A stretch of 30,162 nucleotides of DNA, taken from the IMG/VR virus record IMGVR_UViG_2545824717_000013; one strand, given 5' to 3'. Position 1 is the stretch's first letter. The number at the start of each line of letters is the position of its first letter. The DNA comes from a virus. Its lineage: Duplodnaviria > Heunggongvirae > Uroviricota > Caudoviricetes. A program made the translations under genes and the position numbers. Below are positions 13,326 through 30,162 of the stretch, in pieces. Below the pieces are notes generated by a model. The model was not told the origin of the DNA. It did no database searches and was given only the letters and a program-made list of their open reading frames with translations.

Positions 13326-14359
13326 TGGGAAAGAGTAAGAAAAACCGCGCTGCGTCGACGAAACAGATCCAGCATAAAAGCCAGACTTCAGCCGAAGCAT
13401 TCAGCTTCGGTGATCCCGTTCCTGTTCTGGACCGCCGCGAACTGCTGGACTATGTGGAATGCGTACAGATGGATCGTTGGTATGAGCCGCCTGTGAGTTT
13501 CGACGGACTGGCGCGAACCTTCCGCGCCGCCGTGCATCACAGCTCACCGATTGCAGTGAAGTGCAACATTCTGACCAGCACCTACATCCCTCACCCGCTG
13601 CTCAGCCAGCAGGCTTTTTCGCGTTTTGTACAGGACTATCTGGTTTTTGGTAACGCCTACCTGGAGAAACGCACGAACCGCTTCGGTGAAGTTATCGCCC
13701 TTGAGCCTGCACTGGCAAAATACACCCGACGCGGGTTAGACCTGGATACCTACTGGTTTGTGCAATACGGTATGACTACGCAGTTGTATCAGTTCACGAA
13801 AGGCAACATTTTTCATCTGATGGAACCGGACATCAACCAGGAGATCTACGGTCTGCCCGGTTATCTTTCTGCCATTCCGTCAGCTCTGCTCAACGAGTCC
13901 GCCACGCTGTTCCGCCGCAAGTATTACATTAACGGCAGTCATGCAGGCTTCATCATGTACATGACCGATGCTGCGCAGAACCAGGAGGATGTGAACAACC
14001 TCCGCAATGCGATGAAAAGCGCCAAAGGTCCTGGTAACTTCCGTAACCTGTTTATGTACTCGCCTAACGGTAAAAAGGACGGGCTTCAGATTATCCCGTT
14101 GTCAGAAGTGGCGGCGAAGGATGAGTTCCTGAATATCAAGAACGTGAGCCGGGACGACATGATGGCGGCGCATCGTGTGCCGCCACAAATGATGGGGATA
14201 ATGCCTAATAATGTCGGGGGGGTTGGGGATGTGGAGAAAGCCAGTCGCGTATTTGTACGTAATGAATTAACGCCCTTGCAAAAAAGGCTACAAGAGCTGA
14301 ACGACTGGCTGGGCGAAGAAGTGATTAAATTTACGCCCTATATTCTTTCAGAAGAATAA
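13322..14359 (+). CDS. Q: Portal (capsid) protein gpQ
   Basis: 345 aa, P2 gpQ-like, transcribed toward the cos region. Confidence 0.9.
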   Translation: MMGKSKKNRAASTKQIQHKSQTSAEAFSFGDPVPVLDRRELLDYVECVQMDRWYEPPVSFDGLARTFRAAVHHSSPIAVKCNILTSTYIPHPLLSQQAFSRFVQDYLVFGNAYLEKRTNRFGEVIALEPALAKYTRRGLDLDTYWFVQYGMTTQLYQFTKGNIFHLMEPDINQEIYGLPGYLSAIPSALLNESATLFRRKYYINGSHAGFIMYMTDAAQNQEDVNNLRNAMKSAKGPGNFRNLFMYSPNGKKDGLQIIPLSEVAAKDEFLNIKNVSRDDMMAAHRVPPQMMGIMPNNVGGVGDVEKASRVFVRNELTPLQKRLQELNDWLGEEVIKFTPYILSEE

Positions 14360-14367
14360 TTCCGAAC

Positions 14368-15066
14368 TTATTTGTTTCTTCTTTGTTCACGCCTTGTCTT
14401 GGCTTCGATAAGGCGTTGAGGTTCAGTGTAAAGCCGTTCTAAAAAAAGATAGGTAAAATCTTCAAGATCCTCAGCAGCAGCTTTATCCAAAATACCTTCA
14501 TGCGCTCCATCATTTCCGTCATCTTTAACGCATTCAGCTAGTTCCCTTAAAGCTTCAGGCAGTAGATGATTATCAAATAACCACTCCATTCTTAACCCTA
14601 GGCTTCTCCTTATTTTTTGCGCAGGCCCTTGCTCCCCATCAGGAAGAAGTCCTTTTGTGGCATAATCAAGGCAAAGCCTAAACATGGTTGCTGCTGCATT
14701 ATAACAACCTATAGCCAAACATTTCGCCCCTTCCTCATATGCACTATTGATATGCTCAGGTAAGAACTCTGGTGGCTCCTCTACTGCTAAGTCTGCTGGT
14801 GATATAGGCCTAACAACCTCTGCAACTTCCTTTAAGCCGAATATTCCACTTTCCCAATTATAGCCATCTAAAGTTTTATTTTTCGTTAAAGGTCTGCAAA
14901 GAAACATTGTCGTTTTATGACACTCTCGGCAAACACAATAGACCTCGTACTCGTATGTTTTACCCCCGCCCAATGCATTGTAAACCCTAGTGCAATTCAG
15001 CCCATTAACATCAAACGCTATTTTTTGTGATCCACATCGTGGACAGTCATCCACTAACATAACCAT
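14368..15066 (-). CDS. Zinc-ribbon plus DUF4145/HEPN-like domain protein (candidate abortive-infection/defence gene)
   Basis: 232 aa in AT-rich insert; N-terminal CPRCG...CRECH Cys pairs; C-terminal AATMFRLCLDYATKGLL...GNDGAHEG resembles DUF4145 as I recall it. Confidence 0.55.
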   Translation of the reverse strand: MVMLVDDCPRCGSQKIAFDVNGLNCTRVYNALGGGKTYEYEVYCVCRECHKTTMFLCRPLTKNKTLDGYNWESGIFGLKEVAEVVRPISPADLAVEEPPEFLPEHINSAYEEGAKCLAIGCYNAAATMFRLCLDYATKGLLPDGEQGPAQKIRRSLGLRMEWLFDNHLLPEALRELAECVKDDGNDGAHEGILDKAAAEDLEDFTYLFLERLYTEPQRLIEAKTRREQRRNK

Positions 15067-15175
15067 GTCAATTACTCCTCCCTATGAAAAAAATGAGTTG
15101 AAAAATTGAATATTCACGACTTAAAAAGCTAGCCTATTTAACACCATAATTTCATTAATTCAACCATGAGCGCGC

Positions 15176-15196
15176 GCTCGTATCCCCGCCACGCCT
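15176..15196. other. Probable cos site (cohesive-end region)
   Basis: Minus strand reads GGCGTGGCGGGGATACGAG, whose first 13 nt match the 186/P2-type cohesive end as I remember it (GGCGTGGCGGGGAAAGCAT); GC-rich island between two AT-rich genes. Confidence 0.4.
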
Positions 15197-15355
15197 GCCC
15201 GCTTTATGTAGTGGTTTTCATGCGCCTGCATGACATAAGCAAAAGCCCGCCACTCCTGGCAGGCCTCAGCTAAAACGATCCTCAAACGATCATGCGGATT
15301 CATGCGGCATAGACATGCACAATCGCCAAAGCGGGCATCGAGACTTTTTGGAAAC

Positions 15356-15967
15356 CTACGTAACCACAGTTAATGTGTGCATCCTGTCTCGAATTGCATC
15401 ACACGTCTCATCAAAAAGCTTGGTAATGGTTGTACGGTTCAACTCTGCCTCTTTCCAATAATTTTGCCCGTCAAAATCTGGATCGCTATGCTGAAACGAT
15501 ATTGACTCTGAAAGGCATTCCTTCCGGAAACGGTCCAAGATTATATAAACCTCTGGTGAGATGAACGGTTTGTTAGACTCAACACTTGTAACAAAAGTAT
15601 TAAATGTATCGAAAAAAACTTTCAACCTTCTAAGTTTTCTCTCTTCAAATGGTTCGTTGAGGTCGACATGATCCAGCGCAGGCCTAAGCTTAAGCACGCT
15701 TTCTCTTATTTCAAACATCGAATTCCAAATGAGACTATATGCTGATAACTCCTTATCAAAATACGCTTTCGTTACATAAACAGAATTGTCTAACTTAGCC
15801 TTTATTCTTTCATTAGTTGCACTCAGTTGTGATTGAAATTCAGCAATATCTTTGTTTAGCCGCGACTTATATCTTTCTAAATAAACTTTCCCGATCCAAA
15901 CAAATATGCCAGATGCAACAAAAGACACCCCACCCAACGAAGCCAGAACTTTAAAGACTAAATCCAT
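15356..15967 (-). CDS. Membrane-anchored protein of unknown function (candidate defence/moron gene in the P2 tin/old position)
   Basis: 203 aa, AT-rich; hydrophobic N-terminal helix FKVLASLGGVSFVASGIFVWIG followed by a charged, helix-rich soluble region. Confidence 0.55.
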   Translation of the reverse strand: MDLVFKVLASLGGVSFVASGIFVWIGKVYLERYKSRLNKDIAEFQSQLSATNERIKAKLDNSVYVTKAYFDKELSAYSLIWNSMFEIRESVLKLRPALDHVDLNEPFEERKLRRLKVFFDTFNTFVTSVESNKPFISPEVYIILDRFRKECLSESISFQHSDPDFDGQNYWKEAELNRTTITKLFDETCDAIRDRMHTLTVVT

Positions 15968-16015
15968 TGCGCCCCCACCTGCAAAAATAGTATTCCAATA
16001 TAAGCTAATACATTT

Positions 16016-16327
16016 TTAATCAAATAGGGAATAATTCGCGTCAACCTCATCACTTCTCTGCTCTCCCCTGGTGACTTCCATCAAAAACCCGAGGCCGTCA
16101 TATAGCGAAACGGAGAATTCCAGCTCAAGCCAGAAGCAGTCTTCATAGGTGCGGCCCAACCAAAAACCTCCGCCACACTCCTTTGGTCGTTGAAAGAAGA
16201 CCCAGCCGCTATGGGTAAACCGCTCCAGCACCTGGTCCCGATAAATAATCTGGTGATTACTGTCTTTTTTACCCTTGGCTAACGCCTCGCTACTCTCGTT
16301 ATTCAACCTTGCTGACGTCAGAATCAA
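16016..16327 (-). CDS. Hypothetical ORF (TTG start), possibly a remnant
   Basis: 103-aa ORF in the same frame as the gene A fragment but separated from it by stop codons; no recognisable motifs. Confidence 0.25.
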   Translation of the reverse strand: MILTSARLNNESSEALAKGKKDSNHQIIYRDQVLERFTHSGWVFFQRPKECGGGFWLGRTYEDCFWLELEFSVSLYDGLGFLMEVTRGEQRSDEVDANYSLFD

Positions 16328-16432
16328 GTTCTTACATCCGGAACGTTCCTTAGTGCAGCCAGCTGTCGTCTTCCCAAACCTGCTGCATAATTTCCATCAC
16401 CCGCTTTTTGTCTTCATCAAGCTTTAAGCCAC

Positions 16433-17683
16433 TCAGTTCAACGCCGTTTGCCGACCCTTTACGGATGCGGATACCGTCGCATTTGTCCAGGTTGGGTTTG
16501 GTCTGCCGTTATTGAGCGTGGAATGGAAACGTGACGGACAGGTAATGGTGTAGAAAACGGCGCAATCACCACGCATTTCCGCGATAAGCTCCAGACCTTT
16601 AACACAGGCCATCATCTCATTGCGGCGGTGCGCCGGGTTGCTGCTGCTGGCGTTTACCACGTCTTCCATATCCAGCGTGTCGCCCTCTTCGTTCACCAGT
16701 TCATGAGAACGGAAAAACTCCAGTGACTTGCGGCGCTGCTCACGTTTATGCATCACGGCTTCATAGCTGACATAGGGAGATGCTTTTTTGCTGACCAGGC
16801 AGACAGCACGCAACTGCTCTTCCCGCCATTCGCAACGCATCTTCCATAATTTCCGATACCACCAGTCGGCACACAACATACGCGCCAGCGAACCCGGAAT
16901 GAGTTCATAGGGCACGGGTTTACGGCGGTTTCTTTTCCGACGGAGTTGCTCAAACGCAGGCGGAATAACATCCAGACGCAGGGTTTCCGCTGCCACCTTT
17001 TCCCATGTTTTGCGGATTTCTTCTGGCTTAACGTCATCGGTGGCATACAAATCACCACAAGCGGCATCAAGGCACATGCTCATATGCGCAGCGACAAGGG
17101 TAGACAGGCGCTTCACCTGATCCTGACTCATTTCAGGCAGGATAAGCAGGCCGTCCAGCCCTTCATGGCTTGCCATAAAACGAAAAGATGCAGATAGCTG
17201 GCTGTCGCGTACATGCTCCAGTCGTTCCAGACATGGCTTAATCGTCTCACGTAAATAGCGGGAATAAGCCTTTGGCCTGCCTAGGCTGCTAAAGTATTCA
17301 ATACGTTGCATCAGCGGCTTGCTGATATGGGAAGGCTGGGCGTTGACGTCCGCCAGAATGACCATATCCGGATTAAAACGCTGCTGCTCATGCGCCAGCT
17401 TTGCCCGGCTAATGAGCTTATCCTGCTCCATTTCGCGCTGGACAGGATCACGTGATTCATTAAAAAAATAACGCTCCCAGACCTGATCACTCAGTGCCTC
17501 GCGGCGCAGTTGTTCCTGCTCGTTATCGGCAGCGTACAGAGTGATCAGGTTTGAAAGCGCAGAAACCGGCGCAACTTCCGCCGGGTCCAGATAAGGGTTA
17601 ATGGCCTTTTTCGGGCTGTTCCATGAGAACGCTGCGGCAGCCTCGTTAAAGCCGCAGCAGTTGTTCATATCGGCATGACTCAT
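16433..17683 (-). pseudogene. A: Replication initiation endonuclease gpA, N-terminal fragment (3'-truncated)
   Basis: 416 aa ending shortly after a rolling-circle motif-1-like FYTITCP; P2 gpA is about 760 aa and the catalytic Tyr region is not present downstream. Confidence 0.7.
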
Positions 17684-18537
17684 GCACGTACTCCGTACAC
17701 GGCTGAACTATCCACGCCACGCGAAGGATCAAATCCCACCCAGCAGAGCGGCCCGGAAACAGCGATGATTTCTGTTGCAGATTTACTCTCACCAGCTGCC
17801 ACACCGATGCTGCGTTTTGCCTTGATGTAGTGGTGAGTAAAATTGCGATACAGCGAACGGATCAGGGATGTGTCACTGTTAGAAACAATGACCGGATGTC
17901 CTTCTGATGACCGATGTTCAAGAACGGATGCCAGGTGATACTGGTCATCTTCAGTGAAACCATCAGTGTGATAGCCGGAAAACGTACCGTCATACGGCGG
18001 ATCGCAATACACCACATCCCCCACCTGCAGCATCGCCAGCGTTTCATCAAAGCTTGCGCAGATAAACGTTGCCCGCTGGGCTTTCTCTGCAAATGCGCGA
18101 ATTTCTTTTTCAGGGAAATACGGATTTTTATAATTACCGTACGGAATGTTGAAATGCCCGCTCTTGTTATAGCGACATAACCCACGGTAACCATGACGAT
18201 TGAGATACAGGAAATATACCGCTTTCATGAAATCAGTAATTTCAGTGGAGTAATTAAACTCCTGCCTTATGTTGTAATAAGCCACATCCCTGTTTGCTTC
18301 CTCAAATAAAGCTCTGGCACGAGATATAAACGCTTCGCAATCAGCGACAATCTTTTTATAGAGGTTGATTAAATCAGGATTAATATCCGCAACAAGATAG
18401 CTGGGGTAATCCGTCTCCATCATCACAGCACAGGAACCCGCGAAAGGTTCAACCAGTCGCGGGCCAGCAGGAAGATGTTTTTTCAGTTCGGACATAATGG
18501 CGGTTTTATTTCCCGCCCATTTCAGGATGGTGCTCAT
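17680..18537 (-). CDS. Dam-family DNA N6-adenine methyltransferase
   Basis: DPPY motif ([10 protein letters not shown]) and N-terminal FAGSCAV SAM-binding motif; start placed at the ATG overlapping the upstream stop (ATGA). Confidence 0.85.
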
Positions 18538-18761
18538 ACAACACCTCCGTTGTAATGTTTGCCTTTCAGCTCTGCGATTTCCTGACAGGTAATGCAAAGC
18601 TGCACTCCAGGAATGGCGCGGCGTCGTGCTGGCGGAATTGGCGCTTCACATTCAATACAAAGCACACGAGACACGCCCGGTGTTTTGGCACGGGCAGCAC
18701 GGATATAGCGCTGGCGTCCTTCTTCAACGCGCTGCTGTACGAGATCCATTGCATCTGCCAT
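18534..18761 (-). CDS. TraR/DksA-type C4 zinc-finger protein
   Basis: 75 aa with CIECEAPIPPARRRAIPGVQLCITCQ motif. Confidence 0.7.
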   Translation of the reverse strand: MADAMDLVQQRVEEGRQRYIRAARAKTPGVSRVLCIECEAPIPPARRRAIPGVQLCITCQEIAELKGKHYNGGVV

Positions 18762-19000
18762 TAGTGGATCTCCTGCGCTTCGTTCTGGATTGCTTCAGCA
18801 GTCACACGCAGCAGTTCTGCCGCTTCGACGTGGTTTAGCTGGCGGGATGTGATATGACACGCCAGGCTATCAAGGCGAGCTGCCATTGCTTCAGCCCTTG
18901 CCCGGCGTTCTTCCAGACGAGCCTCTGTCAGTAAAATATTAAGCCCTGCATCATCCGGTCCGGTTTTAGTCGTGAGGGTTTCAATATTACGCATAATCAA
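18761..19000 (-). CDS. Hypothetical phage early protein
   Basis: 79-aa ORF translationally coupled to the neighbouring genes in the early operon. Confidence 0.45.
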   Translation of the reverse strand: MIMRNIETLTTKTGPDDAGLNILLTEARLEERRARAEAMAARLDSLACHITSRQLNHVEAAELLRVTAEAIQNEAQEIH

Positions 19001-19061
19001 TTCTCCTGAATTTAGATAAAGGGATGCCCGGCGGGTTTACGCCATTAATTTCATTAGTTGC

Positions 19062-19403
19062 TTAATTCGGCATGGTTAGCCGTCTGGGAAATAAGCTCAC
19101 CACTGCACGAAAATGATTCATTGCTTTAATCAACTCCCGCTTTTCGTCAGTGGTCAGCTCATTAATGCTGATGCTATGACGTTCAGCTGGAATTTTTGCC
19201 ATAAAGAATATGGCAGCCAGTGCTCGTTTATTTTGTTCGTTATTGATATCCCGTGGATCACGCATATCTTTAATAAACCGCTCAAGCTCTGACTCAATAT
19301 TCAGGCCAAATACTTTCGCCCTTAACTCCGCAATGTGATTAAGTCCATTCAGGCGTTCACCGGGGCTTAATGGAACAGTCGCCGCAGCGCCATTAATTGC
19401 CAT
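19062..19403 (-). CDS. Hypothetical phage early protein
   Basis: 113-aa ORF in the early operon. Confidence 0.45.
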   Translation of the reverse strand: MAINGAAATVPLSPGERLNGLNHIAELRAKVFGLNIESELERFIKDMRDPRDINNEQNKRALAAIFFMAKIPAERHSISINELTTDEKRELIKAMNHFRAVVSLFPRRLTMPN

Positions 19404-19425
19404 AATTCATATCCCCAAAACGCAA

Positions 19426-19650
19426 CTATCGTTCTTTGTTCTTACGGTAACATTCAAGAGGAGATACATTTTTTCGTATCGTCTCTTTAACCTGCTCTCC
19501 CCGTAAAAACGTCCCATCCCTTAGCGTGAAAAAGTAACTGCCATCGCCCGACAACGACGGATAACAACAGAGCAAATCATCTTCAGGTACTGAATAACTC
19601 TCCCCTCTGTAACGAAACTGATAAACCACTTCACTTTCCGCTGCATACAT
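19426..19650 (-). CDS. Hypothetical phage early protein
   Basis: 74-aa ORF; overlaps the 3' part of the upstream ORF in another frame. Confidence 0.35.
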   Translation of the reverse strand: MYAAESEVVYQFRYRGESYSVPEDDLLCCYPSLSGDGSYFFTLRDGTFLRGEQVKETIRKNVSPLECYRKNKER

Positions 19651-19847
19651 TTTGACTTTCTCCGTTTCCTCGTGGTCAATTCAGACAGCAATTCATCTTG
19701 TGAATGACATGGATGCCAGCGTTTACCATCCTCACCCATGATCCAGCCGTGACCGTAGTGCATTGCCGGGCTTTGTTTTACCAGCAGCGATGCAAATGAT
19801 GGTTCTTTCGTCAGCATAAGCACCTCACAGCAAACCGAATGAAGCAC
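19521..19847 (-). CDS. Hypothetical early protein (position of 186 fil); 3' end uncertain
   Basis: 108-aa ORF directly after cII; N-terminal half looks protein-like, C-terminal half overlaps the next ORF. Confidence 0.3.
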   Translation of the reverse strand: MLHSVCCEVLMLTKEPSFASLLVKQSPAMHYGHGWIMGEDGKRWHPCHSQDELLSELTTRKRRKSKCMQRKVKWFISFVTEGRVIQYLKMICSVVIRRCRAMAVTFSR

Positions 19848-20334
19848 CGAGGCCAGTCACGGTATCAACTGCACTCACCATCGCAGGATTAGCCTGTAAA
19901 CGGGCCTGCAATGAAACAGCCGCCAGCGCCATCAGTCGTGTTACAGAGTTAATGCTGCTGATAGCATCACGACGACCGGCACTAGTTTTTACATCACCAG
20001 ATACCGCACCTGCAGCAACACGCCCGATCTCTGCGGTTGCACTCATGACGTAATGTGGCAGTTTCTCTTTTGCCACCTCATTAATTGGTACGCATGGCAG
20101 GCAGTGAATCTGTGCCAGAAAGCCATCTACCAGCGTTGAATCTTCAGTCAGATCGGTGAGCAACCAGATTTCTGGCGCTGTGAGCTGATGCGGTTGATCT
20201 GGGTTGAGTTTGTTTCGCAGTGTCTGAACATTCATTCCTGCACGTTCTGCCAGCTTCGCCATGTTGTGACGTAGTGCAAAAGCTCTACAGGCTTCATCAA
20301 AATTCGGATGTTTGGAAATCTTGTAATCAAACAT
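19825..20334 (-). CDS. cII: CII-like lysogeny establishment regulator
   Basis: 169 aa (same length as 186 CII), HTH-like region; second gene of the rightward operon after apl. Confidence 0.7.
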   Translation of the reverse strand: MFDYKISKHPNFDEACRAFALRHNMAKLAERAGMNVQTLRNKLNPDQPHQLTAPEIWLLTDLTEDSTLVDGFLAQIHCLPCVPINEVAKEKLPHYVMSATAEIGRVAAGAVSGDVKTSAGRRDAISSINSVTRLMALAAVSLQARLQANPAMVSAVDTVTGLGASFGLL

Positions 20335-20366
20335 GCTGCCCCCTTAGAAAGTTCCCATAATTGAAC

Positions 20367-20609
20367 TTACTTACCAACAATGACGCGGAAGTTGGAATGA
20401 CCGAGGGATTCACGAACCTGGTCGGTTTTGTACATCAGGTAACGAAGGCTTACGCGACCTTTGTTTTTTTCTTTCTTGACCATGTACTTGGCGAGCTGGC
20501 CATGGTGAATTTTCTGGTAAACAGAGCCACGGGAGATACCTTCCCATTCAGCGAACTCTGCAGGCGTAGCCATCTCTTTTGGTACACGAATTGAAATATC
20601 AGTGCTCAT
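20367..20609 (-). CDS. Apl/Cox-like excisionase and lytic-operon first gene
   Basis: 80-aa HTH protein divergent from cI across a 120-bp switch region. Confidence 0.65.
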   Translation of the reverse strand: MSTDISIRVPKEMATPAEFAEWEGISRGSVYQKIHHGQLAKYMVKKEKNKGRVSLRYLMYKTDQVRESLGHSNFRVIVGK

Positions 20610-20665
20610 AGTGCAGTATCTCTCAGTTAAGGTTTGGTTTATGTCGTTTTATCTTGTTTTATGCA

Positions 20666-20708
20666 ATCCAATATTTGAACAATCGAGATACTACGATCCA
20701 ATATTTGA
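20666..20708. promoter_or_regulatory. Switch-region operator repeats: two copies of ATCCAATATTTGA 30 bp apart
   Basis: Direct 13-bp repeats at about 20666..20678 and 20696..20708 in the cI/apl intergenic region, each with an AT-rich near-palindromic core. Confidence 0.4.
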
Positions 20709-20728
20709 TACGTCAATAGGATTAAAAA

Positions 20729-21361
20729 ATGATACAGGTGAAGGCTGGCGAGAATACAGGGGGTAGAGAGGCTATCCATAGGTTGATGGCTGCCTATGAT
20801 TTCAAGTCCCGACAGCAGCTATGCGATCACTTAGGCGCATCTAAAAGCACTATGGCAAACAGATACTTAAGGGATAGCTTCCCTGCAGAATGGGTGATCC
20901 AATGCGCTCTTGAAACAGGCGTTTCATTACTCTGGCTAACTACAGGACAAGGCGAACCAGGAACAAAAATTGATGATAGAAAAAGTATCAATTTCGTGAA
21001 CTCCAGCAAAGTAAAACCACTTTCTGAGCTTGTATCGCCAGAGATCGATAAGGCTAGCCTTATCGGAGGTTCGTTGATTGAAGCCGGGAAGGCCATCATT
21101 GATAGCAGCCTGCTTCCCCCTGACTCAAGCGAGCTACTTCTCGTAAATACCAATGGCGATTCATATTTAATTGACCGTAACCAGACACTACCAGTGAATG
21201 GGATGTGGTTGGTCGATATCGACGGGATAAAAAGCATTGTTAAGCTAACTCGCCTTCCCGGAAACAGATTAGTTGTACATCAAGATGATTCTTCGTTTGA
21301 GTGCAGCCTGGATGATATCGAGGTTGTTGGCCGCGCATTGAAAATCATTAAGAGCCTTTGA
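20729..21361 (+). CDS. cI: CI-type immunity repressor (186-like)
   Basis: 210 aa, N-terminal HTH (...QLCDHLGASKSTMANRYLRD...ALETGVSLLWLTTGQGEP) and C-terminal domain; immediately upstream of int. Confidence 0.8.
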   Translation: MIQVKAGENTGGREAIHRLMAAYDFKSRQQLCDHLGASKSTMANRYLRDSFPAEWVIQCALETGVSLLWLTTGQGEPGTKIDDRKSINFVNSSKVKPLSELVSPEIDKASLIGGSLIEAGKAIIDSSLLPPDSSELLLVNTNGDSYLIDRNQTLPVNGMWLVDIDGIKSIVKLTRLPGNRLVVHQDDSSFECSLDDIEVVGRALKIIKSL

Positions 21362-21362
21362 T

Positions 21363-22376
21363 ATGACCATCAGAAAACAGCCGAACGGAAAATGGTTGTG
21401 CGAGTGTTACCCGAACGGGCGTGACGGCAAGCGCGTGCGCAAGCAATTTGCGACAAAGGGCGAGGCTGTAGCATTCGAAAACTTCACCATGGATCAAGTG
21501 AACAAAAAGCCGTGGCTGGGTGAAAAGGAAGATCGGCGGCGTTTGTCAGAATTGATTGAGCAGTGGCACTCCCTTTACGGCCAGACGCTCGCAGACCCCA
21601 AGCGCCTGATGGCGAAACTGAATATTATCTGCAATGGCCTAGGCGATCCCGTCGCCTCTGAATTAACCGCCGGTGACTTTACGAAATATCGTGAAGCACG
21701 GTTGAAAGGAGAGGTACGTAACGAAGAAGGCGCGCTAATGTCGCCAGTAAAACCACGCACGGTAAACCTTGAACAGCGTAACTTATCATCCGTTTTTGGC
21801 ACCCTTAAGAAGTTGGGCCACTGGTCAGCGCCTAACCCACTCGCCGGGCTACCGACATTCAAAATCGCAGAGGGTGAATTGGCATTCTTAGCCTTGGACG
21901 AAATTAAACGCCTGCTTGATGCCTGCGCTGATTCTCAAAGCCCTAGCCTATTGATGATCGCAAAGGTATGCCTAGCTACCGGCGCGCGGTGGAGTGAAGC
22001 CGAAAACCTTCAAGGCCATCAGTTATCAAAATATCGGATCACCTATACCAAAACCAAAGGCAAGAAAAACCGAACTGTACCGATATCTCAGGAGCTATAC
22101 GACGAACTACCCAAAAACAGGGGGAAGCTGTTCACGCCATGCAGAAAAGCTTTTGAACGAGCAGTGAAGCGGGCCAATATAGACTTACCAGCGGGACAAT
22201 GCACTCATGTGCTACGCCATACTTTCGCCAGTCATTTTATGATGAACGGCGGAAACATACTTGTTTTGAGAGATATTTTGGGTCATTCTGATATCAAGAT
22301 GACCATGGTATATTCACACTTTTCACCAGATCATCTTGAAGACGCAGTTTATAAAAACCCACTCAACTTTTTATAA
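21363..22376 (+). CDS. int: P2-family tyrosine integrase
   Basis: 337 aa with C-terminal catalytic motifs (ATGARWSEA...HVLRHTFASHFMMNGG...LGHSDIKMTMVYSHF). Confidence 0.9.
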   Translation: MTIRKQPNGKWLCECYPNGRDGKRVRKQFATKGEAVAFENFTMDQVNKKPWLGEKEDRRRLSELIEQWHSLYGQTLADPKRLMAKLNIICNGLGDPVASELTAGDFTKYREARLKGEVRNEEGALMSPVKPRTVNLEQRNLSSVFGTLKKLGHWSAPNPLAGLPTFKIAEGELAFLALDEIKRLLDACADSQSPSLLMIAKVCLATGARWSEAENLQGHQLSKYRITYTKTKGKKNRTVPISQELYDELPKNRGKLFTPCRKAFERAVKRANIDLPAGQCTHVLRHTFASHFMMNGGNILVLRDILGHSDIKMTMVYSHFSPDHLEDAVYKNPLNFL

Positions 22377-22385
22377 TGTACAGAC

Positions 22386-24128
22386 TTACATTGATAAATA
22401 ATCCAACTCATCTTTCATAGGAATAATTTGTTCATATAATCGATGATATGATTTACCAATTGCCCCTCTAAATTGAATTAATTTAGGTGGATTATTACCT
22501 ATATTAATAATATGATCTTGTGCAATACCCGGATAAGGATCAATGAAAATTATTTCAGCGACCTCTAATTGATATGCTTTTTTTGCACAAAGTTCACAAG
22601 GACTTGCTGTAGTATACAACTTACCACCTTGGACACCAACGCCACCATATTTAGATAATTGTAAAAAGGCATTTTCTTCAGCATGTAAAGCTCTGGTATG
22701 GACCTGATTCCCTTTTTTATTATCATCAAGACTATTATGAATATCCTTGAAGCAATATGACAAATTACGTCCTTTAAAAATTTCAGAGCTTGATTCAATC
22801 GCTCTAAACTTTATTAAATTACTTTTAGCTTTCTTTCTAAAAAGAGCATCATTTCGCTCATATGAGCTATATACTTTCGAATCAAAATCATTGATCAACC
22901 CATCGAGTGATCTCATTGAACATGGTATCTGCCCTTTAGCTACATCATTCCAACCAACTGATTTAATTGAATTATCATTATCTGTAACAACGGCACCGAC
23001 CTGCCTCGATATACATCCAGAGTTTAATTTAACAGTATATGCGACCTGCATAACTCGCTCCATCGCTGTAGGAGTGATCAATCCAGGATGCTTCATTAGA
23101 GCGATATACCATGCAAGTTGTGCTTTAAGTATGTTATTGTTATCAAACTCATTTTTAGGATTATAAAGATGTATATCTGAAATTTCTATGCATTTCGTTA
23201 CATTAGGGTTCGTTAAATGTTTATATTGATTGTCTTTATCTCCTTTTCCTGATTCAATATCATCAATGTGTTTAATGCGCTCAGATGAAAACTTGTGTAG
23301 CTTCTGTAAATATTTTTTCCTATGCTCATCAGGAGCATTAATTGATACCAAATGGAATGCAGCATATCTATCTTTAAAGAATTTAGCTTCATATGGATTA
23401 CGTATAGCATCAATAACTACTAATGCCTTACCACCTTGGCTTTTTCTAATTAGCTTAATGACCCTATTAATAGTTTCAGGCAAATGAAATACCGATTTTG
23501 GATCAAATTCTTCTGTTTCATAGTTTGTTTTTACTTCACCAAGCCGTCTAACAGATTTTCCAGCGGCCTGATAAGTTGATACATAAAGACCTGTATTTAT
23601 CTCATTAAGTTCTTTTTTGAAGTTATTAGTGAAAAACCTAACCAAATGCAATGTTTTTCTTATGTTAGATACATCTAGATTATCGAGATCTAATTCTTGA
23701 CTATGATCAATAAGTGCTTTTAATATATCCGTCCTTATTTTTCTAAGTTGTGTTTTTGAAAATGCTCCTTCATTAAGTATCTTGTTTAATTTATCTTCAT
23801 CAATGCTATCTTTAGTTGACGACGTGATGAAGTGTGAAAGTTCAGTATGTGACATTGCTAACAAATAAACTGATAGCAAGTCACTAACCTTGATTGAGTA
23901 AAATGCCTCCCAATGATTCTCAGTGAAATCCTTAACTATCTTATAACGCTGTAAATCTAAACCATTATAAAAATCAGTTAATTTATCCACATCGGGAAAT
24001 ACTGTCTCATTACTTTCTAAAATAGTTGCTGCTGTAGTACAACCAGAACCAGTTCTTCCAGTTAAGCCAACTAGAATAAACTGCCCATTTTCTAAAAAAA
24101 GTTCACTTACGAATTTCTGTGTTTTCAT
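22386..24128 (-). CDS. Kinase-like plus cytidine/dCMP-deaminase fusion protein (antiviral dCTP deaminase DCD/AvcD-like)
   Basis: AT-rich ORF; C-terminal HAEENAF...SPCELC zinc-binding deaminase signature; N-terminal GLTGRTGSG P-loop-like motif; start placed at Met preceded by GGGG RBS (ORF track extends to 24284). Confidence 0.75.
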   Translation of the reverse strand: MKTQKFVSELFLENGQFILVGLTGRTGSGCTTAATILESNETVFPDVDKLTDFYNGLDLQRYKIVKDFTENHWEAFYSIKVSDLLSVYLLAMSHTELSHFITSSTKDSIDEDKLNKILNEGAFSKTQLRKIRTDILKALIDHSQELDLDNLDVSNIRKTLHLVRFFTNNFKKELNEINTGLYVSTYQAAGKSVRRLGEVKTNYETEEFDPKSVFHLPETINRVIKLIRKSQGGKALVVIDAIRNPYEAKFFKDRYAAFHLVSINAPDEHRKKYLQKLHKFSSERIKHIDDIESGKGDKDNQYKHLTNPNVTKCIEISDIHLYNPKNEFDNNNILKAQLAWYIALMKHPGLITPTAMERVMQVAYTVKLNSGCISRQVGAVVTDNDNSIKSVGWNDVAKGQIPCSMRSLDGLINDFDSKVYSSYERNDALFRKKAKSNLIKFRAIESSSEIFKGRNLSYCFKDIHNSLDDNKKGNQVHTRALHAEENAFLQLSKYGGVGVQGGKLYTTASPCELCAKKAYQLEVAEIIFIDPYPGIAQDHIINIGNNPPKLIQFRGAIGKSYHRLYEQIIPMKDELDYLSM

Positions 24129-24221
24129 ATATCCCCACATCGAAAAGTATTGATATTTTTTTATTTTTTCATCACTTCCAGTATAAATTATCGTAGGTAG
24201 ATATTCTATTGCATTAGTATA

Positions 24222-24244
24222 AGTGGCGGCAAAATGGCGACAGA
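24222..24244 (+). repeat. 23-bp direct repeat AGTGGCGGCAAAATGGCGACAGA (copy 2), candidate integrase arm-type site
   Basis: Identical to 1107..1129. Confidence 0.4.
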
Positions 24245-24336
24245 AGAGTAAAAATGCATAACACTTGCTAATACGCCAAAACACTAAATCAATGATAATA
24301 TTGATAAATTATTGCATCTCAACCATTAATAATAGT

Positions 24337-24385
24337 ATGTAGGAATTTCGGACGCGGGTTCAACTCCCGCCAGCTCCACCAAATA
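24337..24385. repeat. attR of prophage remnant / attL of the downstream island: 49-bp ssrA 3'-end duplicate
   Basis: Identical to 1016..1064. Confidence 0.8.
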
Positions 24386-24416
24386 TTGATGTACTGAAGT
24401 TCAGTAAAGTCTACTA

Positions 24417-24450
24417 AGCCCGCACAGCACAAGCTCTGCGGGCTTTTTTA
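24417..24450 (+). terminator. Rho-independent terminator after the duplicated ssrA 3' end
   Basis: AGCCCGCA...TGCGGGCT stem followed by TTTTTT. Confidence 0.5.
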
Positions 24451-24547
24451 CGTCTATTGTAGTCTAGTGAGAATTGCTGAGAACTACGAGTTATGGCACC
24501 CTGAATGGGACCCACGAAGATGGGTCCTAAAATCGAGGGTCCCAAAC

Positions 24548-25777
24548 ATGGCCAAAATCGCTAAGAAGCTCACTGACACTGAAATCAAAAGCACCAAACC
24601 TGCCGAAAAAGAGGTTAACCTTTTTGACGGCGATGGTTTGCTGTTGCGAATCGCTCCCCTGGCGAAGGGAGGGAAGAAAAATTGGTATTTCAGATATGCA
24701 GTGCCTGTGACCAAAAAGCGAACTAAGGTGAGCTTAGGAACCTATCCTCACCTTACACTTGCGAAGGCACGAGCTTTACGTGATCAATACTTGTCGTTGC
24801 TTACAAATGGTATAGACCCCCAAGTTCATAACAACCAAAAAGCCAATGCACTGAAAGATGCCACGGAACATACATTTCAAGCAGTAGCCAAGAAGTGGCT
24901 TGATGAGAAAGTCAAAACGTCAGGCATCTCCCAAGATCATGCTAACGACATCTGGCGAAGCCTAGAGAGAAATATCTTTTCCACATTGGGTGATACCCCA
25001 ATTAAGGAGATTCGCCCTAAAATGCTTAAACAGCATTTAGAACCCATAGAAAAACGAGGTGTCCTTGAAACACTTCGCCGCATCATATCCCGCCTGAATG
25101 AAATTTTCCGCTATGCAGCAACAGAAGAACTCATAGAATTCAACCCGGCAGACAACCTGGGGCAACGGTTCAGCAAGCCAAAAAAACAGAATATGCCAGC
25201 ATTACCCCCTTCCGAACTCCCTCGCTTCTTGGTTGCTCTAAACAATGCTTCTATCCGTTTGGAAACAAGGCTACTGATTGAGTGGCAACTTCTCACATGG
25301 GTTCGCCCAGGTGAAGCTGTTCGCACAAGATGGTCAGATATTGATATTGAAACTGGCATGTGGAACATCCCGGCGGAGTTTATGAAAATGAAGAAGCCTC
25401 ACAAAGTTCCACTGAGCAAAGAAGCTTTGCGAGTTTTGGATTTAATGAAAGTCATCAGCGGGCATAGAGAGTGGGTGTTCCCCAGTATCAAAGCTCCACT
25501 CAATCACATGCATGAACAAACAGCTAATGCGGCCATAATCCGTATGGGTTTCGGAGGTGAGCTTGTAGCTCACGGTATGCGATCCATTGCTAGAACGGCT
25601 GCTGAGGAGTCTGGCAAGTTTAGGACTGATGTCTTAGAAGCCGCCCTTGCCCACTCGAAGAAAGATGAAATAATTGCAGCCTACAATCGTGCAGAGTATC
25701 TCACTGAACGGGTGGTTCTCATGCAATGGTGGAGTGACTATGTTTCGTCTCAAAAATGCAAAGTTATTGCCGCATAA
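24548..25777 (+). CDS. intA: P4/CP4-57-type tyrosine integrase
   Basis: N-terminal LTDTEIKSTKP...DGDGLLLRI...WYFRY typical of P4-family integrases; start placed at MAKIAKK with GAGGG RBS (ORF track starts at 24467). Confidence 0.88.
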   Translation: MAKIAKKLTDTEIKSTKPAEKEVNLFDGDGLLLRIAPLAKGGKKNWYFRYAVPVTKKRTKVSLGTYPHLTLAKARALRDQYLSLLTNGIDPQVHNNQKANALKDATEHTFQAVAKKWLDEKVKTSGISQDHANDIWRSLERNIFSTLGDTPIKEIRPKMLKQHLEPIEKRGVLETLRRIISRLNEIFRYAATEELIEFNPADNLGQRFSKPKKQNMPALPPSELPRFLVALNNASIRLETRLLIEWQLLTWVRPGEAVRTRWSDIDIETGMWNIPAEFMKMKKPHKVPLSKEALRVLDLMKVISGHREWVFPSIKAPLNHMHEQTANAAIIRMGFGGELVAHGMRSIARTAAEESGKFRTDVLEAALAHSKKDEIIAAYNRAEYLTERVVLMQWWSDYVSSQKCKVIAA

Positions 25778-25839
25778 CTCTCCCATGATGGATTAACTAT
25801 CTTGATTTAGTTAAAGAATTAATAATCACACCATTAACC

Positions 25840-25889
25840 TATGTGGACTAAGCATAGCCATTTACAAATGGGGACATTGAGTCCACATA
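25840..25889. repeat. 10-bp inverted repeat TATGTGGACT / AGTCCACATA with 30-bp spacer upstream of the serine recombinase gene
   Basis: Perfect 10-bp arms in an AT-rich intergenic region. Confidence 0.3.
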
Positions 25890-26059
25890 ACGAAAGCTGT
25901 CGGTCATATCAGCTAAATAATTCACATCTCTTCTCGATTATCATACACCTCGAAGATCTACCAAATTCGCTCTAATCAATGATAAAACAGTTGAATTCGG
26001 TTGAAATTTGATCAATTTTATCCACTACATTGTATTGAATCATCCATGAGGTTTCGTGC

Positions 26060-27616
26060 ATGGCTAGCGAAAATGACAAAAATCATAGAGTTAGGGTCGC
26101 GCAGTACTTGAGGATGTCTACCGACCATCAGCAATATTCTTTACATAATCAGTCCGAATATATCAAAGATTATGCTGAAAAGAACAATATGGAAATCGCT
26201 TATACCTACGATGATGCAGGTAAGAGCGGAGTCAGTATCGTAGGCAGGCATTCTTTGCAGCAGTTACTTAGCGATGTAGAACAAAAGAAAATAGATATAC
26301 AGGCTGTATTATTTTATGATGTGAGCCGTTTTGGTCGTTTTCAAAATAGTGATGAAGCGGCATATTATTCCTTTCTATTTGAGAGAAATGGTGTAGATCT
26401 TATATATTGTTCCGAACCTATACCCACTAAAGATTTCCCTTTAGAGTCCTCTGTTATACTGAATATAAAAAGATCTAGTGCTGCATATCACAGCAGGAAT
26501 CTATCTGATAAGGTATTTATAGGGCAAGTAAATTTAATAAAGCTTGGTTATCATCAAGGCGGTATGGCTGGTTATGGGCTGAGACGTCTTTTAGTAGACG
26601 AAAATGGCATAGCTAAAGAAATATTGAGTTTCCGCAAAAGAAAGAGTATTCAAACAGATAGGGTAATATTAATTCCGGGACCAAAAAATGAAATAAAAAT
26701 TGTAAATAGAATATATGATCTCTTTATAGATAATAACGTCCCAGAATTCATTATTGCTGAGAGATTAAATGAACAGAACATACCTGCAGAAAATGGAACA
26801 TTATGGACTCGTGCAAAAATACATCAAATTTTGACAAATGAAAAATATATTGGAAACAACATATATAACAAAACCTCATCTAAATTAAAAAGTAGGCTTG
26901 TAAAAAACCCCAAACATGAATGGGTTAGATGTGACAAGGCATATAAACCTATTATTTCAAAGAAAAAATACAATAAAGCTCAAGAAATAATTCAGCTCCG
27001 ATCCATTCATTTGACTAATGAAGATCTATTAGAAAAACTAAAACAAAAATTAGAATCTAATGGAAAACTATCAGGCTTTATCATTGATGAAGATGATACA
27101 GGCCCTTCATCTTCTGTTTATAGAACCCGATTTGGTGGTCTTTTAAGAGCATATACTTTGATTGGTTATAAGCCAGAACATGATTACAGCTATCTCAAAA
27201 TAAATGAAGCACTAAGATCATTTTACTCAGAGATAATTGAGGATTTTAAGGGTGAAATTTTAAAAAGTAACTGTCATATAGACGAGTATAAATATGCCCC
27301 AATGCTTTACATCAATGATGAGTTTTTAATTTCCGTCCTTGTTACTAAATGCATACATATGAAATCAGGTAAACTTAGATGGAAAGTCCGGTTTGATAAC
27401 TCACAGAAAGCAGACATAACAATTGTTATACGAATGAATTCACAAAATATTTCACCTCTTGATTTTTATATCATACCAAAGATTGAAAACGAATATAATA
27501 AAATGTGCATGACGGAAACAAACAACATTCGATTAGATCTCTATAGATTTGATAATCTTGATAAACTTCTACAAATTATTACTCGCATGAAAGTGAGGGA
27601 ACTATATGCTGCCTGA
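26060..27616 (+). CDS. Large serine recombinase
   Basis: 518 aa; N-terminal resolvase-type catalytic domain (VAQYLRMSTDHQ...YTYDDAGKSG...VSRFGR) followed by a long recombinase/zinc-ribbon-type extension; AT-rich. Confidence 0.8.
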   Translation: MASENDKNHRVRVAQYLRMSTDHQQYSLHNQSEYIKDYAEKNNMEIAYTYDDAGKSGVSIVGRHSLQQLLSDVEQKKIDIQAVLFYDVSRFGRFQNSDEAAYYSFLFERNGVDLIYCSEPIPTKDFPLESSVILNIKRSSAAYHSRNLSDKVFIGQVNLIKLGYHQGGMAGYGLRRLLVDENGIAKEILSFRKRKSIQTDRVILIPGPKNEIKIVNRIYDLFIDNNVPEFIIAERLNEQNIPAENGTLWTRAKIHQILTNEKYIGNNIYNKTSSKLKSRLVKNPKHEWVRCDKAYKPIISKKKYNKAQEIIQLRSIHLTNEDLLEKLKQKLESNGKLSGFIIDEDDTGPSSSVYRTRFGGLLRAYTLIGYKPEHDYSYLKINEALRSFYSEIIEDFKGEILKSNCHIDEYKYAPMLYINDEFLISVLVTKCIHMKSGKLRWKVRFDNSQKADITIVIRMNSQNISPLDFYIIPKIENEYNKMCMTETNNIRLDLYRFDNLDKLLQIITRMKVRELYAA

Positions 27617-28502
27617 AAAAAATGAATTCTCAATAATTCAAATTGAGATTGCAAAAATAAAATTTCTTAACCCACGAACAAGAAATAAGGTAGTGCATGA
27701 AGAAATAAAGGAAAGCATAAAAAAAAGAGGATTAAGCAAGCCAATAAGCGTAAGAGCTATTGATGAAGGCGATTTCAAATATGCTTTAATTTGTGGTCAA
27801 GGGAGAATAGAGGCTCTCGTTGCATTAGGTGAAACTATTATTCCAGCAATTATAAGAGATGTATCAGAAGAAGATGCTTACGTTATGAGTTTAGTTGAAA
27901 ACATTGCAAGGAGAAGACCACGTTCTAATGAGTTATTACAGGTGATTAAAGACATGAAAATCAGAGGACTTTCAGACTCCGAAATAAGTGAGATTACTGG
28001 ATATTCATCGAACTGGGTGAGCAGTATTAATATGCTACTTGATAAGGGAGAGCATAAACTTCTCTCAGCAGTCGAACGGGGTAATTTGCCTCTGTATCTC
28101 GCAGTGCAATTTGCAAGATGTGAAACTGAGGAAGCACAAGATATTCTTACCGAAGCATATGATAAAAAATTAATAAAAAGTCGGGACATTATAAAGATAA
28201 AACACATTCTAAATCAAAGAACAGTTGGGAATAAAGGTGCAAAAGCAGCCGGATTTTATTATCACAAACCATCAAAAAGGATGACTGCAGAGGAGTTGAT
28301 TGAGCTTTATGAAAATAGTATCGCTGAACATAAATCTGTTTATAACAACTCAAAATTCATAAAAACCAACCTACTAATAGTAAATGAGATTTTTAACATC
28401 ATAATGATGAATAAAAGCTTTCAACATATACTTGAACAAGAGAATCTTTCAGAACTACCATCTCAGATATTAACCCCAGTAAACAAAGAGGTATTAAAAT
28501 GA
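27606..28502 (+). CDS. ParB/sulfiredoxin-like domain protein 1
   Basis: 298 aa; N-terminal IQIEIAKIKFLNPRTRNK...ICGQGRIEAL resembles ParB N-terminal nuclease-like domain; overlaps recombinase stop. Confidence 0.65.
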   Translation: MLPEKNEFSIIQIEIAKIKFLNPRTRNKVVHEEIKESIKKRGLSKPISVRAIDEGDFKYALICGQGRIEALVALGETIIPAIIRDVSEEDAYVMSLVENIARRRPRSNELLQVIKDMKIRGLSDSEISEITGYSSNWVSSINMLLDKGEHKLLSAVERGNLPLYLAVQFARCETEEAQDILTEAYDKKLIKSRDIIKIKHILNQRTVGNKGAKAAGFYYHKPSKRMTAEELIELYENSIAEHKSVYNNSKFIKTNLLIVNEIFNIIMMNKSFQHILEQENLSELPSQILTPVNKEVLK

Positions 28503-29395
28503 TTCAGATACGTTTTGGCGATAATTTTATTTACCTGGAAACTAATAAGTTAATTCCATCTAAGGAATTATTAGAAAACGTAAAGCGAAGCCATAAATAT
28601 CATCAAATAGTTACCTCTATCGAAAGCTTAGGTATTATTGAACCAATAATAGTATTCTATGACAAAGATAAAGATGTCACTAAGATACTTGATGGCCATT
28701 TAAGGGTTGAGGCTTTAAAAGACTTAGGTATAGAAAAAGCTCCATGTATACTTTCGAGCATAGATGATGCTTTCACTCCTAACAAACAAGTGAATCATAT
28801 AAATGTAGTTGAAGAACATAGAATGATAATTAAGTCTCTGGCAAAAGTATCAATTGAAAAACTTAGTGCTGCTTTGGGCATATCTGTTGATGCCATAAAA
28901 GATAAAGCGAATGTGATGAACGGCATAGATCCAAGTGTAATTGCGAAACTTTCTGATAAACCTATACCTAAGGCTACATTTGACGTTTTGAGGAAAATGA
29001 AGCCAATTCGCCAAATTGAAGCAGTCGGTACAATGATTAATTTTGATAATTATAGTAAAAAATTTGCAATGAGCATCTTGGATGCAACACCGGCATCGAT
29101 GATAGTAAATAAAGGGAAAAACACTCCCTATAAAAAGGACATAAAAAAAACCATACTTCGTCTGGAACAAGAAATGGCAACAACTTCGGAAGAAACGAAA
29201 AAGCTTCAAACCGAGTATGGTTCAGATATGTTGAAATTCGTTATAATCCAGTCATATATTAATAAATTACTTGGCAATTCTAAAGTTCTTCATTGGTTCT
29301 TAGAAAACGAGGTTGATTATCTTAATGAGTTAAAAAGAATTTCTAGAATAAATTCTTTGGATGATAAGACTCTTACTGAAAACAGCAAGTCATAG
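28499..29395 (+). CDS. ParB/sulfiredoxin-like domain protein 2
   Basis: 298 aa; IIEPIIVF...LDGHLRVEAL ParB-like motif; start overlaps stop of previous gene (ATGA). Confidence 0.6.
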   Translation: MIQIRFGDNFIYLETNKLIPSKELLENVKRSHKYHQIVTSIESLGIIEPIIVFYDKDKDVTKILDGHLRVEALKDLGIEKAPCILSSIDDAFTPNKQVNHINVVEEHRMIIKSLAKVSIEKLSAALGISVDAIKDKANVMNGIDPSVIAKLSDKPIPKATFDVLRKMKPIRQIEAVGTMINFDNYSKKFAMSILDATPASMIVNKGKNTPYKKDIKKTILRLEQEMATTSEETKKLQTEYGSDMLKFVIIQSYINKLLGNSKVLHWFLENEVDYLNELKRISRINSLDDKTLTENSKS

Positions 29396-29775
29396 TCATG
29401 GTTTTATATAGCCTAAATAAACCAAGAAGTATACTTACACAACGACCTTCACGCCGAAGAAGCTGTCAGATACGCCAGCAACCAAAGCATTACGTTTAAG
29501 TGTCAGTCATTGATACGAAGGGATAACTGCGTATCAGCAGCCGGACATTGAGTCGAATAAAGGCTGGTAGAGAGGGACAGTTCTGTGTCACCGGGAGATT
29601 CGTCAGAAACATCAGCGGCAGAACAGATGAACCAGCAATTGGTAGTGCACAGAAAACTCTCCAGTATTTAATTATTCAACTTAACACTAAAAAAAATCAC
29701 ATAGTTAATATCATAATTTTTCTTTGGTCTACGTATGCGAGAGATATTGTGGCTTTAACCGGGTATTAGGAGTCG

Positions 29776-30162
29776 GGTAATGACTCCAACTTATTGATAG
29801 TGTTTTATGTTCAGATAATGCCCGATGACTTTGTCATGCAGCTCCACCGATTTTGAGAACGACAGCGACTTCCGTCCCAGCCGTGCCAGGTGCTGCCTCA
29901 GATTCAGGTTATGCCGCTCAATTCGCTGCGTATATCGCTTGCTGATTACGTGCAGCTTTCCCTTCAGGCGTGATTCATACAGCGGCCAGCCATCCGTCAT
30001 CCATATCACCACGTCAAAGGGTGACAGCAGGCTCATAAGACGCCCCAGCGTCGCCATAGTGCGTTCACCGAATACGTGCGCAACAACCGTCTTCCGGAGC
30101 CTGTCATACGCGTAAAACAGCCAGCGCTGGCGCGATTTAGCCCCGACATAGCCCCACTGTTC
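29776..30162. mobile_element. IS1 insertion sequence, partial (continues beyond window)
   Basis: Begins with IS1 terminal inverted repeat GGTAATGACTCCAACTTATTGATAGTG and matches IS1 sequence through the window end. Confidence 0.9.
29791..30162 (-). CDS. insB: IS1 transposase InsB, C-terminal part (5' end outside window)
   Basis: ...[88 protein letters not shown] matches IS1 InsB. Confidence 0.85.

Follow-up and report, generated by a model that had tools for sequence, protein, structure and literature searches.

The int–attR slot

The IMG/VR virus record IMGVR_UViG_2545824717_000013, the whole 30,162 nucleotides (nt) of which are hereafter called the window, contains a P2-like prophage that carries a gene for a 580-amino-acid (aa) protein of the anti-phage deoxycytidine triphosphate (dCTP) deaminase family. 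The ends of the prophage are marked by an attachment core of 49 bp, which is made up of the last 45 bases of ssrA (1016..1060) together with the 4 bases that follow them, and which recurs as an exact repeat at 24337..24385 (Table 1). From these two cores, therefore, the prophage extends over ca 1016..24385 and includes the deaminase gene, which is placed between the integrase gene int and attR. An earlier reading of this DNA, made without database searches (the sequence-only reading), had described the gene as convergent with int and as lying between int and attR; both points stand, since the stop codons of the two genes are only 9 nt apart and the repeats of the att core enclose the deaminase gene.

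Table 1. Coordinates of the deaminase gene, its motifs and the surrounding attachment and integration features in the window
Feature	Coordinates	Strand	Remarks
ssrA, intact	698..1060	plus	
attL core	1016..1064	plus	3' end of intact ssrA
int, P2-type tyrosine integrase	21363..22376	plus	Convergent with the deaminase gene; last codons after ...KNPL (~22364) form the left slot junction
Anti-phage dCTP deaminase coding sequence, DCD/AW1.7 clade	22386..24128	minus	580 aa; RefSeq WP_001530934.1
Zinc-dependent dCMP/cytidine deaminase C-terminal domain, with stop codon	22386..23078	minus	~aa 351-580
PCELC	22587..22601	minus	aa 510-514; predicted zinc ligands Cys511 and Cys514; from translation
HAEENAF	22665..22685	minus	aa 482-488; predicted zinc ligand His482 and catalytic Glu484; from translation
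P-loop nucleoside monophosphate (NMP)-kinase-like N-terminal domain	23079..24128	minus	~aa 1-350; ~100-aa insertion relative to H10407 AvcD
Walker-A-like GRTGSGCTT, non-canonical	24033..24059	minus	aa 24-32; Cys30 at the expected Lys position; from translation
Allele-specific 93-nt leader	24129..24221	minus	Sole upstream sequence owned by the cassette; Shine-Dalgarno-like GTGGGG
Candidate sigma-70 promoter TTGCCG-18-TAGAAT	24203..24232	minus	-35 hexamer inside the Int arm-type repeat GTGGCGGCAAAATGGCGACAG; predicted
Probable Int arm-type binding repeats GTGGCGGCAAAATGGCGACAG	24223..24243	plus	Right slot boundary; conserved in all slot variants
attR core	24337..24385	plus	Exact 49-bp copy of the ssrA 3' end; partial tmRNA match

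The 580-aa open reading frame (ORF) that the sequence-only reading had placed at 22386–24128 is indeed a minus-strand ORF with exactly these coordinates, which are also those of WP_001530934.1 in the RefSeq annotation of Escherichia coli TW10598, a strain to which positions 21300..25900 of the window are 100% identical. The frame remains open for 52 further codons 5' of the ATG at 24128, as far as a GTG at 24284, and this in-frame N-terminal extension was considered as coding sequence and rejected as unconserved among the alleles, the others all having stop codons within the first ~20 codons of it. Moreover, the N-terminus of the protein in all alleles reads M-x-x-x-K-F-[IV]-S-E-L. From the lack of conservation of the extension and this common beginning, therefore, the ATG at 24128 is the start. 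The AT-richness of the gene, which had also been remarked upon, is likewise real, with a GC content of 32.4% for the deaminase gene as compared to 47.3% for C and int together and 50.7% for the remaining prophage.

The boundaries of the slot emerge from comparison with related phages. Inside each end of the prophage there is one copy of GTGGCGGCAAAATGGCGACAG, an exact 21-bp direct repeat with two TGGCG[GA]CA units (1108..1128 and 24223..24243), and from their sequence and placement these copies are probably arm-type binding sites of Int, one on each arm of attP. In GDSC2227PM, a close relative in which the slot is empty, two TGGCGGCA repeats come directly after the int stop codon, with the att core ~100 nt further on, such that int is separated from the next gene by 328 nt as against 2,172 nt in the window. 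Similarity to a phage carrying GapS1 resumes at 24222. On the side of int, the C-terminal tails of Int that follow ‘...KNPL’ vary with the cargo, being NFL, HNLNWNR, YNL, NFIYLSNNM, CNLR or NLI, and it follows from this that exchange of cargo recombines within the last codons of int and, in so doing, rewrites the C-terminus of Int. Taken together, the return of similarity at 24222 and the divergence of Int after KNPL define an exchangeable cassette of ~22364..24221.

The contents of the slot are diverse: in sister phages it may be empty, or it may be occupied by GapS1, by an HNH protein or by hypothetical proteins. Among complete genomes there are at least three diverged alleles of the deaminase itself in the slot (with 100%, 74% and 70–71% protein identity to the window protein), and probably four or more such alleles have been swapped into it. 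The same arrangement is seen in the IMG/VR viral loci with close relatives of the gene, in which Int is convergent and downstream in 23 out of 25 cases and in which the att core, wherever upstream sequence is available, always lies 234–271 nt upstream of the ATG. The proposal of the sequence-only reading that the gene is a moron insertion is thus substantiated by junctions mapped against an empty slot and by the variety of cargo that the slot holds, other genes and diverged deaminase alleles alike. In other words, the slot now has an anatomy at the level of the base pair, with its junctions at the last codons of int and at the Int arm-type repeats. The int-att region is known as a minor defence hotspot of P2, accounting for 3% of P2 systems (Moura de Sousa et al. 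2026, PMC13586616), and the deaminase is unmentioned in the main text of that study; the concept of the defence hotspot is found in Rousset et al. (2022, PMC9122126).

Family membership and conserved residues

Alignment of the protein to the DCD/AvcD family, to which the sequence-only reading had assigned it, upholds that assignment and refines it to the DCD/AW1.7 branch. The protein matches the NCBIfam equivalog model NF041025, ‘anti-phage dCTP deaminase’, with 415.5 bits (cutoff 400, E = 2e-124) over positions 1–437 of 437, and it matches the PADLOC dCTPase model PDLC02373 at 6.3e-140; with E-values of this order (~6e-140 and 2e-124) the match is not one of chance. The AW1.7 DCD and the AvcD of strain H10407, at 449 and 470 bits respectively, are both also above the NF041025 cutoff. 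In Pfam, the zinc-binding domain of deoxycytidine monophosphate (dCMP) and cytidine deaminases (dCMP_cyt_deam_1) is found at 2e-14, together with an only faint P-loop signal from AAA_18. Over its full length the window protein has 70% identity and 83% similarity to the AW1.7 DCD (579 aligned residues), and it has 27% identity to H10407 AvcD, confined to aa 229–575 or ~60% of its length. On these sequence comparisons, the window protein belongs to the DCD/AW1.7 branch of the DCD/AvcD family, of which AvcD is a distant branch.

This exact protein already carries the name ‘anti-phage dCTP deaminase’ in RefSeq and is detected by standard defence finders. Given that the family was described in 2022, the identification is correct but ordinary and has little weight as a discovery. 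The gene was also considered as a candidate for the AvcD of enterotoxigenic E. coli (ETEC) that was tested by Hsueh et al., and was rejected, as the tested protein is encoded on plasmid p58 of H10407 and is a distant relative. A DNA similarity search of the H10407 chromosome gave no match to the ETEC AvcD, and it was a protein search that placed AvcD on p58.

The AW1.7 DCD provides defence against many phages, with depletion of dCTP on infection, and this defence is lost in the G29A+C30A and C370A+C401A variants (Tal et al., bioRxiv 10.1101/2021.04.26.441389). The same study found that T7 escapers from this DCD have a mutated gp5.7, an inhibitor of the host RNA polymerase. The AW1.7 sequence retrieved here is that of the characterised protein, since G29, C30, C370 and C401 all fall exactly on their published numbers. 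By analogy, we infer the enzymology of the window protein from this characterised relative, 70% identical to it.

A fold search returns a kinase-like fold for the N-terminal domain and a dCMP-deaminase fold for the C-terminal domain, in accord with the P-loop-like nucleotide-kinase region that the sequence-only reading had seen at the N-terminus; its HAEENAF ... PCELC deaminase motif is also recovered on translation (Table 1). Conservation was assessed in an alignment of 143 sequences, comprising the window protein, AW1.7 and 141 representatives of 50%-identity clusters, behind which stands an exhaustive homologue search that gave 441 clusters at E <= 1e-30. In this alignment H482, E484 and C511 are present in every sequence and C514 in all but one (142/143), while a second pair of cysteines, C372/C403 (C370/C401 in AW1.7), is again invariant (143/143), and a Walker-B-like Asp240 is kept in 139 of the 143.

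The Walker-A-like loop is of particular note in this regard. Among the 139 sequences with a residue in the column of the Walker-A Lys, 130 have Cys and none has Lys, and the loop consensus of the family is G-[RK]-T-G-[SA]-G-C-[ST]-T. The missing canonical Lys to which the sequence-only reading drew attention is therefore real, but it is the norm of the family rather than an anomaly. The Walker-A of H10407 AvcD is also non-canonical (GFAGCGMKT), and the AvcD of Vibrio cholerae is inactivated by S52K (Hsueh et al. 2022, preprint). All of the residues mutated in AW1.7 are present in the window protein, as G29, C30, C372 and C403. The loop is thus non-canonical yet required, because Cys30 and the Gly which precedes it are the residues that Tal et al. 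mutated with loss of defence in AW1.7. The question raised by the Walker-A motif thus has its answer: the Lys-less G-x-x-G-x-G-C-[ST] loop is a defining feature of the family and is needed for function.

The deaminase gene is an accessory one. The window allele, at >=99% identity, occurs in 4 of 5,426 complete E. coli genomes, with ~34 further genomes of this set having alleles at 68–76% DNA identity; the latter reside in P2 slots, a tRNA-Phe island (AW1.7), an integrative and conjugative element (LF82) and a small recombinase island. Across the four complete genomes the allele is 99.7–100% identical, as it is in several contigs from IMG/VR and from metagenomes; the prophage of strain LF4-1, which has it at the same position, is P2-like, 34 kb long and apparently complete. 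There is no close homologue in 50,697 sequenced phage genomes, and carriage by phages rests on prophages and IMG/VR contigs. Near and distant relatives of the deaminase are both found on plasmids. Among sequenced phages with a named host the nearest relative is in Burkholderia phage phiE094 (37.7 kb; MW072790.1 32378..33223), where it is annotated as cytidine/deoxycytidylate deaminase and has ~26% identity to the window protein over aa 238–532. Separately, several marine and environmental metagenome contigs have a DCD-clade deaminase, 51–58% identical, at 3–20 nt after hsdS; these deaminases appear to lie within a type I restriction-modification operon or to have been added on to one.

Proposed function, control and alternative explanations

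The product of the gene is very probably a functional antiviral dCTP deaminase that acts as a single protein and belongs to the DCD (AW1.7-type) branch, the gene being exchangeable int–attR cargo of an ssrA-integrating P2-like prophage. In the lysogen, the deaminase would be made constitutively and held inactive until superinfection by a lytic phage, whose shutdown or subversion of host transcription would release the enzyme. Its zinc-dependent domain (His482/Glu484/Cys511/Cys514) would then convert dCTP, and probably dCMP too, to deoxyuridine forms, and the ensuing collapse of the dCTP pool would starve the replication of phage DNA. The Lys-less NMP-kinase-like domain would be required in this process, most likely not as a classical kinase but as the binding site for a nucleotide or some regulatory ligand. 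A labile RNA of the AvcI type is one possible check on the enzyme.

The sequence upstream of the gene bears directly on this last point. From comparison with the empty-slot phage, the GapS1 phage and the other alleles, the upstream sequence that is the cassette's own ends after 93 nt, and the next ~115 nt are attP arm, common to phages with other cargo or none. The -10 hexamer of the candidate promoter, TAGAAT, is kept in the 95% and 74% alleles; promoter-like sites are, though, no commoner in this AT-rich region than in shuffled sequence of the same region, and promoter assignments are tentative for that reason. In Rfam searches, nothing came up beyond noise and the remnant of ssrA, whether at gathering or at permissive thresholds. 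The leader folds with z-scores of +0.47 (162 nt) and -0.61 (93 nt), a measure which cannot discriminate here because the validated AvcI region of H10407 is itself equally unremarkable (z = +0.54). In an all-against-all blastn comparison of upstream regions from 17 genome and 56 metagenome loci, the matches were confined to loci of one lineage or to the P2 arm that they have in common. Ahead of the deaminase genes there is between 1 and 739 nt of space, and in several relatives the gene follows hsdS by only 3–20 nt.

It is possible, though doubtful, that the locus is a full AvcID-type type III toxin–antitoxin system, in which the deaminase is bound and inhibited by a labile noncoding leader RNA (24129..~24290, minus strand) until a phage halts host transcription and the RNA decays. 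In the AvcD branch, the AvcI small RNA (sRNA) lies directly 5' of the enzyme gene on the same strand, is co-transcribed with it and inhibits the enzyme (Hsueh et al. preprint); this labile AvcI decays once transcription stops, and the shut-off thereby activates the enzyme (PMC10511110). On p58 of H10407, for example, a 186-nt ‘small ORF’ that is the AvcI region is 12 nt upstream of the 532-aa avcD. In the window, a leader of ~160 nt would result if transcription began from a second promoter-like site (24322..24295), and the protein passes the same equivalog model (NF041025) as H10407 AvcD. Moreover, AvcI homologues have no mutual sequence similarity (AvcID literature), and with the z of the validated AvcI as it is, neither dissimilarity nor the flat z-score of the window leader excludes such an RNA. 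Set against this, the 93 nt that the cassette owns 5' of the ATG, the rest being shared attP arm, is short of the 152–174 nt of the minimal functional V. cholerae AvcI (the V. parahaemolyticus transcript being just under 300 nt; AvcID literature including PMC10511110), the promoter-like site at 24322 is unconserved in sister alleles, no Rfam family matches, and the identity to H10407 AvcD is just 27%. Other DCD-clade genes, in their position behind hsdS, have no intergenic room for such an RNA and, from this tight spacing, a directly 5' AvcI is therefore not universal in the DCD branch. The AvcI antitoxin paradigm, shown only for the distant AvcD branch, is thus not simply transferable to the DCD branch.

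The remaining alternatives concern the role of the enzyme itself. That it serves the nucleotide metabolism of the P2-like phage, supplying dUMP and dTTP in the manner of the T4 cd dCMP deaminase rather than acting in defence, is highly improbable. The deaminase domain is closest in both sequence and fold to such enzymes (T4 1vq2, S-TIM5 4p9c and PBCV-1 7fh4), but these are single-domain proteins of 136–173 residues as compared to 580 aa with an obligatory kinase-like domain, and the ComEB dCMP-deaminase equivalog TIGR02571 gives only 34.2 bits against a cutoff of 219.45. Furthermore, the gene is absent from most sister phages, which have known defence genes in its place, it lacks a close homologue in the sequenced phage genomes considered above, and its 70%-identical AW1.7 relative restricts phages. 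Even less probable, to the point of being barely credible, is that the protein edits nucleic acids or is a polymorphic toxin, an APOBEC-, MafB19- or Bd3614-like deaminase by which the DNA or RNA of phage or host would be mutated. Weak Pfam matches could be adduced for this, namely to APOBEC_N, to Bd3614-deam and, with 18.7 bits against a cutoff of 27, to MafB19-deam. These matches are all below their gathering thresholds and overlap the far stronger dCMP_cyt_deam_1, the AW1.7 enzyme gave no evidence of genome or transcriptome editing (Tal et al., bioRxiv 10.1101/2021.04.26.441389), and the locus lacks a secretion or toxin-delivery domain and an immunity gene.

Several observations do weigh against a functional antiviral deaminase controlled as proposed. 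The model of the deaminase domain is of moderate confidence, with a predicted local distance difference test score (pLDDT) of <50 near residues 368–375 and 474–481. The NF041025 cutoff is cleared by just 15 bits, the 74% and 70% sister alleles being similar at 425 and 420 bits, and no regulator that silences the deaminase was identified by Rfam, leader folding or upstream blastn comparison. As compared to that of LF4-1, the window prophage is defective, in that between 11096 and 11527 it has lost ~9.9 kb of its late genes, from tail fibre H to capsid scaffold O, and its replication gene A is truncated (16433..17683) and a pseudogene in RefSeq; the deaminase gene in the window is not on a mobilisable phage. 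These losses could also be read as those of a decaying prophage of which the deaminase gene is an inactive relic, but this is very improbable: when set against all homologues the ORF has its full length, its catalytic residues and those mutated in AW1.7 are all intact, and the allele recurs nearly unchanged in the complete genomes and the contigs given above, one of its carriers being an apparently intact prophage.

Within the preferred explanation of a DCD-type antiviral cargo, the observations on the leader and the slot can be combined into a joint reading, itself rather unlikely, in which the ~1.86-kb one-gene DCD cassette is kept silent without an AvcI-type RNA of known size, as would follow from its having just 93 nt of 5' sequence of its own, and in which occupancy of attR/attP by Int could tune expression. 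Control in this case could come from the kinase-like domain itself, or from an unusually short RNA derived partly from the attP arm. If this were true, then Int occupancy could, by way of the -35 hexamer that the likely promoter has inside the arm repeat, make the level of defence gene expression depend on whether the phage is integrated.

Other features of the window and comparison with known systems

Elsewhere in the prophage, a DUF4145 protein (14368..15066, minus strand; Pfam 4.5e-07) has a weak PADLOC match to the defence candidate PD-T7-4 (1.2e-06) and, together with its neighbours at 15356..15967 and 16016..16327 (both minus strand), lies in the classical P2 hotspot between genes A and Q (tin/old), where the prophage probably carries a second defence cargo. 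A 203-aa ORF beside the DUF4145 gene, ‘valyl-tRNA synthetase’ in RefSeq, had no Pfam or PADLOC matches. At the opposite edge of the prophage, between attL and ogr, there is another small accessory slot at 1184..1507 (plus strand), with a 107-aa ORF which has no family match; the LF4-1 prophage has at the equivalent place an annotated BRCT-domain protein of 160 aa, and the ORF may be truncated in view of this longer counterpart.

The window is collinear with TW10598 (99.67%) over 9335..30162 only, and not over 1..9334; in TW10598 the corresponding end of the prophage adjoins rplS/trmD rather than ssrA. The window was accordingly not taken to be TW10598 itself, and collinearity along its entire length was seen with none of the genomes in the collection searched. 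The breakpoint at 9334/9335 is beside an invertible tail-fibre segment and a Cin-like recombinase (8959..9531), which suggests an inversion or an exchange between two P2-like prophages, or else a different strain. Past attR there is a separate AT-rich island (24467..29395, 30–37% GC), followed in TW10598 by IS1, which encodes a second tyrosine integrase, a large serine recombinase (Resolvase and Recombinase domains) and two tandem ParB_N/RepB proteins.

Of the systems with which the locus may be compared, the closest is the AW1.7 DCD (WP_045268677.1; Tal et al. 2022), which has the identical GRTGSGCTT loop, the same HAE...PCxxC motif with the extra pair of cysteines, and the same two domains. 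The settings of the two genes differ, in that the AW1.7 gene is in an integrase island by tRNA-Phe with ~524 nt of upstream non-coding DNA, whereas the window gene is in a P2 int–attR slot with a 93-nt leader of its own, and the two upstream regions have no similarity. More distant is the AvcD/AvcI system (DcdV/DifV) of V. cholerae, V. parahaemolyticus, Proteus mirabilis and p58 of E. coli H10407 (Hsueh et al. 2022), which shares the P-loop kinase-like and dCMP-deaminase domains, is covered by the same NF041025 model and functions by depletion of deoxycytidine nucleotides on infection, as by analogy the window protein may also do. A further mark of AvcID systems is filamentation brought on by the toxin alone and neutralised by its cognate RNA. 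H10407 AvcD, at 532 aa, does not have the insertion of ~100 aa in the N-terminal domain, and p58 has an AvcI sRNA gene directly 5' of the toxin gene, the like of which could not be identified at the window locus. The single-domain dCMP deaminases (T4 Cd, 1vq2; cyanophage S-TIM5, 4p9c; the bifunctional dCMP/dCTP deaminase of PBCV-1, 7fh4) share the deaminase fold and zinc-site motifs, but they are without the kinase-like domain and are biosynthetic enzymes that serve the phage. With respect to the slot itself, the known system is the int-att hotspot of P2 (PMC13586616), to which the window locus adds the exact junctions, namely the int codons after KNPL on the one side and the arm-type repeats on the other.

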